Source of the DNA: an uncultured Helicobacter sp.
Lineage (GTDB): Bacteria > Campylobacterota > Campylobacteria > Campylobacterales > Helicobacteraceae
Direction of reading: 5' to 3'
NCBI GenBank assembly: GCA_963559865.1
Contig: CAUWMC010000003.1
Span: 25,056-89,055, forward strand
Length of the DNA: 64,000 nucleotides
How positions within the stretch are numbered: position 1 is the first letter of the stretch; each line of letters begins with the position of its first letter. Both the position numbers and the translations under genes were made by a program. The notes below the pieces were generated by a model. It saw nothing but the letters and a program-made list of their open reading frames with translations, was not told where the DNA came from and made no database searches. Positions 1 through 64,000 of this stretch are shown here, piece by piece.

Positions 1-56
1 CATTTTATAAAGTCTTAGAATCTTATTTTCTAGCACTCTAAGACTTTTCTAATTTA

Positions 57-240
57 CCCCACTAGCAACGCTCAAAGTGGCAAAGCACGACCTTGTCACC
101 ATAAACATCAATGGTGGCGATTCACAAAGTGAAACGCCTACTTTGAAAGCGTTGTAGGGGTGGGGGATTTTTAAGGGGGAGTGAGCGGTATATCTGCGAA
201 CCGACTTCGCAATTTAAGCCCCTCCCCCTTAAAGAAAAAA
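57..240. repeat. Composite inverted-repeat (REP/MITE-like) intergenic element made of two adjacent hairpins
   Basis: ccccactagcaacgctcaaagtggc (57-81) pairs imperfectly with gcctactttgaaagcgttgtaggggtgggg (136-165). tttaaggggga-g (~170-181) pairs with c-tcccccttaaa (~222-233), followed by an A-run. Confidence 0.6.
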
Positions 241-365
241 AGTTAATACATTTTTTTTACCGCTTAAACCTTGACTTGTAGATTCAGCTTTATTCCATCA
301 TAGCGATTCTATGTGAGCAGAACTCTATGAAATAAGACTGACAAGCAAAGCCTACCAAGCAGAAT

Positions 366-1175
366 CTACCAACCCATAAGGGCTTTTGTATGTCCTTGTA
401 GCTTGTCAAGATAATCTTGCGGAGTAAGCTTAGAATCCTTAGCCAATTCACTAATAAACCGCACAAAATAGCTTCCAGCCACAATAATCTCCACCTTATC
501 TTTTAGCACTTCAACCTGCTCATTGCTATTTATCCCAAAGCCTAATGCCAATGGCTTTTTGCAAAATCTGCGTATAAACTCCAGCCACTCTAAAAGCGTA
601 GAATCTATATGCGTTTTTGCCCCTGTTGTCCCAGAGCGGGAGATGACATATACTATCTCATCACTTACTTTTGCAATTTTCTTAATGCGTGAAGCTCTCG
701 TTTTGGGAGCAATAAGCGAGATGATTTTGAGGTTATATTTTTTGGCTAGAATGCGGAGTTTCTCATCAGATTCTAAAGGCAAGTCAGGGACTATCATACC
801 CCAAGCACCACACTCTTTTGCCTCTTTGATAAATTCCTCAACACCATAGCGAAAAATCAAATTCGCATAAGTCATCACAATAAGCCGCGTTTGTGTGCTT
901 TTAGTTTGCGTGTGTGCCAAACGCGAAGAGAGTGAGCGAAGCAGAGAAAAACCTTGTGCGACTTTAAAACCTTGTGTTATGCTTTTATCACACGCCTCTT
1001 CAATCACCACACCATCGGCATTTGGGTCAGAAAAGGGAAACTGCACTTCTAAGTAGCTTGCCCCAGCGTGAGCAATCCCAAGTGCTGCATACATACTTAG
1101 CTCCAAGGTAGGATACCCAGCGATAATATGTCCCATAAGCTGAAGTTGCTTATTTTTACTCATAATGTCCTCCAA
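366..1175 (-). CDS. trpA: Tryptophan synthase alpha subunit
   Basis: LEVQFPFSDPNADG carries the catalytic Glu and Asp. YVISRSGTTG and LGFGI motifs; 269 aa. Confidence 0.95.
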   Translation of the reverse strand: MEDIMSKNKQLQLMGHIIAGYPTLELSMYAALGIAHAGASYLEVQFPFSDPNADGVVIEEACDKSITQGFKVAQGFSLLRSLSSRLAHTQTKSTQTRLIVMTYANLIFRYGVEEFIKEAKECGAWGMIVPDLPLESDEKLRILAKKYNLKIISLIAPKTRASRIKKIAKVSDEIVYVISRSGTTGAKTHIDSTLLEWLEFIRRFCKKPLALGFGINSNEQVEVLKDKVEIIVAGSYFVRFISELAKDSKLTPQDYLDKLQGHTKALMGW

Positions 1176-1203
1176 AAATGGATAAAAAGTAAAGAAAAAG
1201 GCG

Positions 1204-61899: not shown

Positions 61900-61923
61900 A
61901 ACGCACTCCTTTTTTTGTTTTGG

Positions 61924-62388
61924 TTACTGCACACTAAAACTAAGGCGATAATACTTTAAATCTGCCAAAAGCTTTTCATACATAGCCTCATCTGTTAAAA
62001 AAACCATAAGCCTAAGGCTATCGCCTGACTTATAATAGGCAGATTCTATATTATTTTGTCGCAACACCTGCTTAACACAAGCAAATTTATACTCATCTAA
62101 ATCATTAATGCTAATTGAGGAAGGCATACCACGCTTAGAATCCTTATCAGCAAAATCAAATCGCACACTAAGCTCCGTAGCAGGGTAAGCATAGGGCAAC
62201 TCATCGTGATCAGCAAGAGAGTTAAGCCAACTCTCACTTTGCTGAATCTGATTTGTGCTAGTTTGTGGAAACTCAATAGGCTGAGCTTGGAAGCTTGGGG
62301 ATACAGAAATTTTATCTAAATACAAAACACCATAAATCGCCCCACTCAAAACCGCTAAAAGCCCTGCAACAAATGCTAGCTTTTTCAT
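61924..62388 (-). CDS. Conserved hypothetical membrane-anchored protein (HP0398-like position)
   Basis: N-terminal transmembrane segment; lies between rpsA and serA. Confidence 0.65.
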   Translation of the reverse strand: MKKLAFVAGLLAVLSGAIYGVLYLDKISVSPSFQAQPIEFPQTSTNQIQQSESWLNSLADHDELPYAYPATELSVRFDFADKDSKRGMPSSISINDLDEYKFACVKQVLRQNNIESAYYKSGDSLRLMVFLTDEAMYEKLLADLKYYRLSFSVQ

Positions 62389-62402
62389 TGCCTAGCTATC
62401 TC

Positions 62403-64000
62403 CTAAAGGCGATTTTTAAGCTTATCGCCAAGTGTGATTTTTTCTTCCGAGTTAAAGGCTTTGAGCGTTTCTTTTTCTTTTTGTCGCTCAAGTCGCTTGA
62501 TAGAAGCTCTCACTTTATTGTTTTCTTCATCAATGTGAGCAATAACGCACTCTATCTCCTGTCCTGCAGAAATCTCCTCTTTTTTAAGCGGATAAATATC
62601 ATCATTACGGATAAGTGCTTCCATCTCATCAATCTTAACAAAAACACCAAAATCCTTTACATCAATAACCTTGCCAATGACAACATCATCAACCTTATGA
62701 GACTTTGCAAATTCTTTTGCAGGAGAGTGGTCTAAGAGCTTTTTGGATAGTGAGATACGCTCATTTTCTTTATCAATCTTAATGATTTTCACCTCAATCT
62801 CATCGCCAACCTTAAATTCATTTTTGCACTTAAGCTCTTTATCCCAAAACGCATCTTCATTATGAAGCAATCCATCAACGCCATCAAATTTTACAAATGC
62901 CCCAAAATCAGTAAGTGTAACTATCTTACCTTTGACAATTTCGCCCACTTGATGTGTTTTGGTAAATTGTGTGAAAGGCTTATCAAGTAGTCGTTTAAGA
63001 GAGACACGAAGTTTTTTATTTGTCGTATCAATCTCAATAATCTCAACATCAATCTCTTGTCCTACGCTCAAATATTGCGAAGGGTGCTTAATATTCTTAT
63101 CCCAAGAAATTTCAGAGATATGCAAGAATCCCTCAATATCATTACCCAAATCTACAAATGCTCCATACGCCTCAATATTACTCACCATAACCTTGATGGC
63201 ATAGCCTACCTCAAGCTCTTTTTCTATCTCTTTCCAAGGGTCATCACCAAGTGCTTTCATAGAGAGAGAAAGTCTGCGTTTCTTCTCATCATAGCCTAGC
63301 ACCTTAACAACAACCGCATCACCTTCCTTAAAATTCTTTGCTGGATTCACAGGTCCCTTATGACTAAGCTCTGTATAATGCACCAAGCCTTCAATGCCAC
63401 CAATATCAACAAAGATTCCAAAAGGAGCAATTTTTGCCACCACACCATTTTGCACACCATCATTTTCAAGGAGCTTGCTACTCATATTTTGACGATTTGC
63501 ATCATCTAGTTCAAAAAATCTCTTGCGTGAAACCACAATAGAATTGTTCTCTTTATCTAGATTCACGATAGCTACCTTATAAGTCCTACCAATAGCCTTG
63601 TCATCTTCACGCACTGCAGAATCTCGGCGAGGCATAAACACATCTACGCCATCATATTCCAACATAAAGCCGCCCTTATTCTTCTTAATCACCTTGGCTT
63701 CAATAATTTTATCCTTATAATCATCTGCTAGTTCTGCAATTTTCTCAACAATTTTGTGCATTTTTAATGCTTTCTTATAAGACGCACTTGGTCTGCCACC
63801 GCGTCCAGAAGTTACAAACACTTCAATCTTATCACCCTGTTTAAAGAGTAGATTCCCATTTTCATCTTGAATCTCACTTAATCTCAACGCAGCCTCTGAT
63901 TTTTCATTAGGCACAGCCACCATAGCATACTCATCATTTATCGCTACAATCTCTCCAGTCTGTATTGCTCCGCTAACAGCCCTACGCTCACTCGCCTCAA
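62403..64000 (-). CDS. rpsA: 30S ribosomal protein S1 (5' end outside the window)
   Basis: Repeated S1 domains (FGIFVD, YGAFVD, FGAFVK, FGVFVK); the frame stays open from 63923 to the window edge. Confidence 0.95.
   Translation of the reverse strand, partial: EASERRAVSGAIQTGEIVAINDEYAMVAVPNEKSEAALRLSEIQDENGNLLFKQGDKIEVFVTSGRGGRPSASYKKALKMHKIVEKIAELADDYKDKIIEAKVIKKNKGGFMLEYDGVDVFMPRRDSAVREDDKAIGRTYKVAIVNLDKENNSIVVSRKRFFELDDANRQNMSSKLLENDGVQNGVVAKIAPFGIFVDIGGIEGLVHYTELSHKGPVNPAKNFKEGDAVVVKVLGYDEKKRRLSLSMKALGDDPWKEIEKELEVGYAIKVMVSNIEAYGAFVDLGNDIEGFLHISEISWDKNIKHPSQYLSVGQEIDVEIIEIDTTNKKLRVSLKRLLDKPFTQFTKTHQVGEIVKGKIVTLTDFGAFVKFDGVDGLLHNEDAFWDKELKCKNEFKVGDEIEVKIIKIDKENERISLSKKLLDHSPAKEFAKSHKVDDVVIGKVIDVKDFGVFVKIDEMEALIRNDDIYPLKKEEISAGQEIECVIAHIDEENNKVRASIKRLERQKEKETLKAFNSEEKITLGDKLKNRL

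Follow-up and report, generated by a model that had tools for sequence, protein, structure and literature searches.

The 64,000 bp window analysed here (G000:C3:25056-89055, positions 1-64000) lies in G000, the 1.907 Mb draft genome (39% G+C) of an uncultured Helicobacter. Dispersed through the genes and intergenic DNA of the window are 146 copies of the palindromic word AGAWTCT (71 AGAATCT and 75 AGATTCT), where a zero-order model predicts about 12. In an initial annotation of this DNA, approximately 65 copies had been tallied in positions 1-27,000 against about 6 expected. We counted 70 there, so both of the earlier figures were close. In DNA sequence the window matches Helicobacter labetoulli strain 48519 at 95% identity and, as a prophage elsewhere in G000 encodes a portal protein 97% identical to those of H. 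cinaedi prophages, G000 can be placed in the H. cinaedi group of the enterohepatic Helicobacter. From the evidence set out below, we conclude that AGAWTCT is a feature of double-stranded DNA and not a coding, RNA or mobile-element feature.

Abundance and placement of AGAWTCT

AGAWTCT is the commonest 7-mer both in the window and in the complete G000 genome, where it occurs 5,637 times, or once per 338 bp. This is approximately 15 times the number expected under order-1 and order-2 Markov models (about 370-410 copies genome-wide), and the reversed control word TCTWAGA was found only 337 times. The initial annotation had also noted that the word is usually flanked by T and A and that the variants AGAATCC and GGATTCT are common. 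The window contains 28 copies of the 9-mer TAGAWTCTA and the genome 1,181, compared with 40 copies of its control word, and the two variants are enriched 3.9-fold. Words that deviate at an outer position but leave the GAWTC core intact (GGAWTCT, TGAWTCT and AGAWTCC) are enriched 4- to 4.5-fold, while one-letter deviants that break the core are found at 0.2-1.6 times expectation, the exception being the A-rich AAAATCT at 2.9 times. Sequence information is confined to T-A-GAWTC-T-A and ends 2 bp either side of the core. AGAWTCT is thus a word rather than part of a longer repeat, and a dispersed repeat unit, such as a repetitive extragenic palindrome (REP) or a miniature inverted-repeat transposable element (MITE), was rejected on the same grounds. 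Genome-wide, the A-centred copies have a 5' flanking T in 54% of cases and the mirror 3' flanking A in only 32%. This asymmetry is weaker between genes and absent on the H. cinaedi plasmid pHci1, and it is probably a coding effect.

The enrichment does not depend on what the DNA encodes. Genes were taken as long open reading frames (ORFs) only, and these crude calls (1,656 ORFs) cover 90% of the G000 genome. When synonymous codons were shuffled within the ORFs, leaving every protein and the codon usage of each gene unchanged, 870 ± 27 copies were obtained, compared with the 4,795 observed (z = 145), and shuffling the order of codons left 438. The excess therefore persists under the codon-preserving shuffle that the initial annotation had singled out as the decisive comparison. 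Copies reach a density of 4.6/kb in intergenic DNA but 2.8/kb in genes, they occur in all three reading frames, and the two orientations on the sense strand are equally represented (2,311 vs 2,477). The effect on coding sequence is nonetheless considerable. Of all Glu-Ser and Asp-Ser pairs, 54% use GAA-TCT or GAT-TCT, where 12-20% would be expected, and the serine codon TCT is used in 56% of cases after Glu or Asp but in 17% elsewhere. As the dipeptides ES and DS are themselves over-represented, 1.44- and 1.62-fold, the pressure for the word is strong enough to distort proteins.

Along the chromosome, copies are spaced nearly as a geometric distribution predicts, apart from a slight excess of intervals of 11-30 bp, and 10-kb segments of G000 contain between 1.3 and 5.2 copies/kb. 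Replication-strand polarity of the kind seen for Chi or for the FtsK-orienting polar sequences and architecture-imparting sequences (KOPS/AIMS) was not found, the ratio of AGAATCT to AGATTCT being 620:668 in C-rich stretches and 1,225:1,146 in G-rich stretches. The highest density, 8/kb, is reached in the first 20 bp past stop codons. The window includes a cluster of three copies in 55 bp at positions 7467-7521 (TAGAATCTAA ... TTAGAATCTT ... TTAGAATCTA) and two abutting copies, 7 bp apart, at 13183-13196, one of 50 such abutting pairs in the genome. Between two convergent genes there are three copies at 21812-21848, the second and third of which occupy the two arms of a terminator-like hairpin on the plus strand (21821-21855). 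The hairpin, one of whose arms carries AGAATCT and the other AGATTCT, has a 15-bp stem and a predicted folding energy of -21.4 kcal/mol (z = -5.9), and none of 200 shuffled sequences folded as well, in agreement with the earlier description of a terminator stem built from the word. Nine further copies are found within the coding sequence of a conserved 988-aa gene on the minus strand (40623-43589), the product of which is 96% identical in H. labetoulli. The earlier statement of clustering in variable protein tails was borne out in part: copies are 2-4 times more frequent than random 7-mers in stretches that are missing from a relative.

Turnover of the word and its distribution among hosts

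In pairwise alignments, in which phase-matched 7-mers served as controls, copies of AGAWTCT proved unusually persistent. Retention between G000 and G002 was 92% (controls 73%), between G000 and G008 78% (controls 35%) and between G000 and G012 74% (controls 37%), and in comparisons with species at about 76% identity it was 31-47% (controls 9-14%).

Gains and losses were then separated in a three-genome alignment comprising 547 kb of G000 aligned with G002 (94% identity), with G008 (88%) as the outgroup, and 97 word families of identical composition as controls. Of 1,264 ancestral copies, 183 (14.5%) had been lost, compared with 30.3% for the controls, a ratio of 0.45, and only 3/97 control families had a loss as low. 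Gains, scored by parsimony with a single outgroup, were biased in the opposite direction: 59 of 1,841 ancestral neighbours differing from the word at one position (3.2%) had become AGAWTCT, 2.8 times the 1.16% seen for the controls, and no control family (0/97) had a gain rate as high. Transition and transversion rates would account for about 24.5 of the 59 gains, and the excess was found both among changes that complete the flanks and among A-to-G or T-to-C transitions that create the core. The number of copies in the aligned columns is nevertheless constant, at 1,529, 1,531 and 1,517 in the three genomes. As both gain and loss are biased while the number remains the same, we conclude that the word is in steady-state turnover under a directional force that operates today, which excludes both a fossil signal and purifying selection alone on an unchanging set of sites. 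A scaled coefficient of about 2 would roughly describe this force. Directional accumulation, as expected of words like the uptake signal sequences (USS) of Pasteurellaceae and the DNA uptake sequences (DUS) of Neisseriaceae, is thus present here, in gains (3.2% vs 1.16%) and in losses (14.5% vs 30.3%).

The distribution of the word on phages and a plasmid was informative. Contig C22 of G000 (47.9 kb) is the prophage mentioned above. All of its genes are on one strand, and they include a P22-like portal gene and the phage's own DnaG-type primase. When the portal protein was used to search viral contigs no match was returned, but homologous prophages and phages from many Helicobacter species, gastric as well as enterohepatic, were found in a phage collection. 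In these records, which are third-party predictions that may include host flanks, AGAWTCT is 8-10 times above the order-1 Markov expectation in the prophages of H. cinaedi, G000 and H. canis (1.3-1.8/kb), about 3 times above it in the H. ganmani and H. pullorum members of the family, and at 0.4-1.9 times expectation in the H. heilmannii and H. pylori (phage 1961P) members. GAWTC is depleted to 0.25 times expectation in phage 1961P. Abundance of the word tracks the host rather than the gene. On the H. cinaedi plasmid pHci1, which is non-mobilisable, there are 91 copies in 23 kb, or 3.95/kb.

The only real desert for the word in G000, and the only stretch in which it falls to chance level, is a 10.6-kb segment of 27-31% G+C (C2:135469-146050) in which only 2 copies are found. 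Its genes code for a C5 cytosine methylase, an NgoFVII-like nuclease and a Z1-domain protein, and from this gene content and the low G+C it looks like a recently acquired restriction-modification island. As regards the scarcity in mobile or recent DNA that is expected of uptake sequences, the picture is mixed, with 0.19 copies/kb in the island but 1.84/kb in prophage and 3.95/kb in the plasmid.

To follow the word through the family, the 9-mer TAGAWTCTA was scored in 161 Helicobacteraceae genomes, with genera labelled g1, g2 and so on. Strong enrichment was found in g1, the genus of G000, and in g3, g6, g7, g11 (10/10 genomes) and g13, and mild enrichment in g4, g9 and g12. The 9-mer is not enriched in g2, g5, g8 (gastric, H. 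pylori-like), g10 and g30. Outside the Helicobacteraceae, a weaker excess was seen in 2 of 16 families sampled. Flank preferences differ by lineage: H. canis favours C-TAGAATC-Y-A, and in the H. ganmani prophage GAWTC is 2.9-fold enriched with weak flanks. The extreme in the family is the g7 genome G058, where the 9-mer is found 8,813 times over 2.7 Mb, or roughly every 300 bp.

Core methylation and candidate methylases

The core GAWTC is a subset of GANTC, the site of CcrM/HinfI-type enzymes such as Caulobacter CcrM and H. pylori M.HpyAIV. In H. typhlonius, SMRT (single-molecule real-time) sequencing detected N6-methyladenine (m6A) in G(m6A)NTC at 20,492 of 20,546 positions (99.7%; PMC4705304, Table 4), which makes up three quarters of all m6A in that genome, a number that passes uncommented in the paper (PMC4705304). 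However, neither Caulobacter nor H. pylori is enriched for GANTC, and GAWTC is depleted in phage 1961P. Methylation alone does not yield the word.

A 287-aa CcrM-like methylase encoded by G000, outside the window (best solved-structure match 6PBD), was considered as the GANTC enzyme and rejected. Its gene overlaps that of a DpnII-family nuclease by 11 nt (C1:134438-136127), and in the H. pylori-like genome G019 an orthologue that is 78% identical forms the same kind of nuclease and methylase pair, near 91 kb. As the gene overlap and the pair in G019 indicate, the 287-aa protein is part of a HpyAIII-type GATC system. GATC is found at 0.23 times expectation in the window and at 0.00-0.29 times in relatives.

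Two other candidates were found. Enzyme A is a CcrM/HinfI-type methylase of about 371 aa with a CcrM C-terminal domain, present in G003, G004, G005 and others. It adjoins moaA in G003 and G005, and in G003 it also lies beside an uncharacterised 248-aa ORF. Enzyme B is a solitary 215-aa beta-class methylase with the motif IV sequence DPQY, and in G000 it lies 16 kb upstream of the window (C3:8653-9300). Across genera, B is 62-97% identical and has a different genomic context in each genome without a nuclease partner, and most of the loci examined for A and B lack one. The DNA adjoining enzyme B in G000 (C3:9354-12885) includes an McrC-like gene (PF10117) that lacks a neighbouring McrB and, after it, a GmrSD-type nuclease.

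Enzyme A was found in 46 and enzyme B in 50 of the 161 genomes, never together (P = 8e-10; within genera, 1.5e-7), and 43 of the 47 genomes of g1, g3, g6, g7 and g13 have exactly one of them. This mutual exclusion suggests that the two candidate GANTC methylases do the same job. A role as the drivers of the word did not hold up. While 19/21 enriched genomes in a set of 41 had one of the enzymes, compared with 4/20 of the others, the association collapsed in the set of 161 (Fisher p = 0.42). None of the 10 genomes of g11 carries A or B, yet all are enriched, and neither g10, with B in 6/7 genomes, nor g8, with A in 27/48, is enriched. Core methylation is thus widespread in the family but is not sufficient for the word, nor is it necessary, unless there is a third enzyme in g11. 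The initial annotation had linked the word to methylation of its core and proposed a search for the methyltransferase. The core is indeed methylated in H. typhlonius and candidates exist, but A and B fail to track the word and the CcrM-like enzyme of G000 belongs to a GATC pair.

How the word might be maintained

The data call for two-fold symmetric recognition of double-stranded DNA and for a biased step that acts on any long-resident replicon. Our preferred reading, to which we assign a probability of roughly 0.4, is that AGAWTCT is a lineage-specific 'self' tag that has accumulated through biased DNA uptake or recombination. An ongoing directional process would make new copies by point mutation at about three times the neutral rate and would allow existing copies to be removed at under half the neutral rate, and the outcome would be a steady state of about 3 copies/kb on chromosome, plasmid and prophage, all of them long-resident replicons. 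Such a process could be a molecular drive that works via natural transformation, as for USS and DUS. The Campylobacter-type uptake machinery, which consists of a secretin and ComEC and is encoded by all of the enriched genomes, would prefer fragments that bear the word, possibly read in its m6A-methylated GAWTC form as in Campylobacter jejuni with CtsM-methylated RAATTY, and word-bearing alleles would replace word-free ones. The biased step would then be uptake or recombination, and there would presumably be a protein that reads the word. We prefer uptake drive because it is the sole known mechanism that accounts together for the density, the graded core and flanks, the distortion of the proteome, the pairs in terminators, the apparent scarcity in new DNA, the dialects and the bias in gain and loss.

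The likeness to USS and DUS, which also have dialects (PMC3630211, PMC3458573), is extensive. Both kinds of word are present in thousands of copies in both orientations, have a core with graded flanks, reshape codon and peptide usage, are enriched past genes and in hairpin pairs, are rare in freshly acquired DNA (in the case of AGAWTCT, in the one island), form clade-specific dialects and show the bias in gain and loss that molecular drive predicts. However, AGAWTCT is shorter (7-9 vs 9-12 bp), palindromic and about three times denser, it is also abundant on prophages and a plasmid, and neither uptake preference, natural competence nor a ComP-like receptor is known for the species that carry it. 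A second parallel is closer in phylogeny. According to the citing article (PMC10046745), Beauchamp et al. 2017 found that C. jejuni takes up only DNA methylated at RAATTY by CtsM. C. jejuni is in the same bacterial order and has the same type of uptake machinery, and its self mark for uptake is likewise, as described there, a short AT-rich palindromic site with m6A. In C. jejuni, CtsM is a conserved orphan enzyme, whereas here there are two interchangeable candidates and a genus, g11, that lacks both. We know of no report that RAATTY is over-represented in C. jejuni.

Several observations weigh against the uptake reading. ComEC was found in 41/41 genomes and the secretin in 40/41, and as both are present in non-enriched relatives (g2, g5 and g10 have the same secretin and ComEC) the uptake genes do not discriminate between genomes with and without the word; being nearly everywhere, they were set aside as markers. 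Conversely, G003 is enriched although its secretin gene is split by a stop codon (G003:C1:1140303-1140817), as is G015, in which ComEC contains four stop codons (G015:C51:66813-67502). A literature search gave no report of natural transformability or selective uptake in species of the H. cinaedi group, and no reader protein was identified. Uptake sequences tend to be scarce in the phage regions of Neisseria and Haemophilus, and prophages at about 60% of host density together with a saturated plasmid suit an intracellular process at least as well. Finally, an AT-rich word of 7-9 bp offers little discrimination in unmethylated form, and A and B, the candidate GANTC methylases, do not follow it.

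Put more broadly, and tentatively, enterohepatic Helicobacter and some of their relatives may possess an undescribed genome-marking system, in which a protein reads TAGAWTCTA, possibly with an m6A core made by interchangeable orphan methylases, and biases uptake, recombination or repair. If so, recognition of a word would be rewriting codon choice, peptide content, plasmids and phages, and this would be a second, independently evolved system of the HIP or USS type, in organisms amenable to genetics. A genome-wide iterated word is known from only a few bacterial groups, and the mechanism behind highly iterated palindrome 1 (HIP1) of cyanobacteria has been open for three decades. AGAWTCT occurs in culturable Helicobacter of animal and human intestines (H. 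cinaedi, H. hepaticus, H. typhlonius, H. canis and relatives). Its on/off phylogenetic pattern, the measurable bias in gain and loss and the natural experiment provided by the phages should make the reader protein findable, and make it possible to distinguish drive from selection and uptake from repair. The word may also matter for the genetic manipulation of Helicobacter species that are hard to transform, and it affects how codon usage, methylomes and horizontal transfer are interpreted in the carriers. We found no published description of AGAWTCT, GAWTC, HIP or uptake sequences in Helicobacter. New here are the bias in gain and loss, the dependence of the word on the host in one phage family, its saturation of an H. 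cinaedi plasmid and its near-absence from the low-G+C island, the GATC identity of the CcrM-like methylase, and the mutual exclusion of A and B with no link to the word.

HIP1 (GCGATCGC) and the alternate highly iterated palindromes of cyanobacteria (Elhai 2015, PMC4390886) are, like AGAWTCT, short palindromes present at about 1-3 copies/kb in genes and spacers. Their inner core is a methyltransferase target, their one-letter deviants differ mostly at outer positions, and they have lineage-specific variants. AGAWTCT differs in being AT-rich and of odd length with a degenerate centre (W), in being denser, in belonging to Campylobacterota, in the methylation concerned (m6A at GANTC vs 5-methylcytosine or m6A at CGATCG/GATC) and in candidate methylases that do not track its abundance. 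The main rival to biased uptake, though an unlikely one in our view, is an intracellular drive of the HIP1 type, independent of transformation, in which biased repair or correction linked to methylation would act on any DNA that replicates in the cells, convert near-cognate sites into the palindrome and restore mutated copies. It would explain a palindrome with a methylated inner core, as at the 99.7% of GANTC sites in H. typhlonius, and the fourfold enrichment of deviants that keep the core but not of those that break it, a pattern that Elhai also found for HIP1 (PMC4390886). A bias in both gain and loss, the presence of the word on chromosome, plasmid and prophages but not on the fresh island, and the single methylase, A or B, in nearly all genomes of g1, g3, g6, g7 and g13 can be read the same way. 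However, A and B do not follow the word over the 161 genomes, g11 being enriched with neither and g10 and g8 carrying one without enrichment; as the mark is m6A, the logic of deamination and Vsr repair is inapplicable; and no candidate repair enzyme was found. To our knowledge, Helicobacter lacks MutS1/MutL/MutH mismatch repair, which also counts against a drive of this kind. The suggestion in the initial annotation of a HIP1-like or an uptake and self-recognition word is supported in part. It stands as far as a DNA-level, unpolarised, genome-wide and hyperconserved word is concerned, one that is gained directionally, has lineage-specific dialects and is absent, above chance, from the fresh island, and its link to methylation is half supported.

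More doubtful still is a word maintained by selection on its density, as the site to which an abundant, dimeric protein of the chromosome binds. This protein might be a nucleoid organiser, or the word might mark self DNA and hold back a nuclease or defence system, much as Chi does with RecBCD/AddAB. A two-fold symmetric architecture of 4+1+4 half-sites, even, near-Poisson coverage on every replicon and hyperconservation are all consistent with such a protein, and phages of enriched hosts would be expected to bear the word if its absence were penalised in the cell. But spread over about 5,600 sites, the selection on each would be extremely weak, and the raised gains would require selection to act on density and not on single sites. 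The 10.6-kb island is tolerated with almost no copies, there is no strand polarity, unlike in known Chi or KOPS motifs, and no candidate protein was found. That AGAWTCT has no dedicated process behind it and simply results from composition, from codon or dipeptide usage, from the avoidance of restriction sites or from a mobile repeat that has dispersed is scarcely credible and already contradicted: oligonucleotide usage is indeed distorted, with GASTC, GATC and TCNGA depleted 3- to 50-fold, and copies are more frequent (2-4 times) in stretches that a relative lacks, but the excess persists when synonymous codons or the order of codons are shuffled (z = 145) and is higher outside genes, no sequence is conserved beyond 9 bp, gain and loss rates are unlike those of the 97 control words, and homologous phages differ by host.

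The comparison of GAWTC with GASTC, which the initial annotation had proposed, revealed 11,087 and 435 sites, respectively, in the G000 genome. Within the ORFs, GASTC is present 373 times, compared with 2,041 times after shuffling (z = -36), a 5.5-fold depletion. It is depleted 3- to 14-fold in all of the g1 genomes sampled and is not depleted in H. canis prophages. We read this depletion as a separate signal of restriction avoidance. TCTSAGA and TCGAAGA are also almost absent from the whole G000 genome, with 7 and 5 copies, respectively, which looks like avoidance of restriction at sites of the TCNGA/TCGA type.

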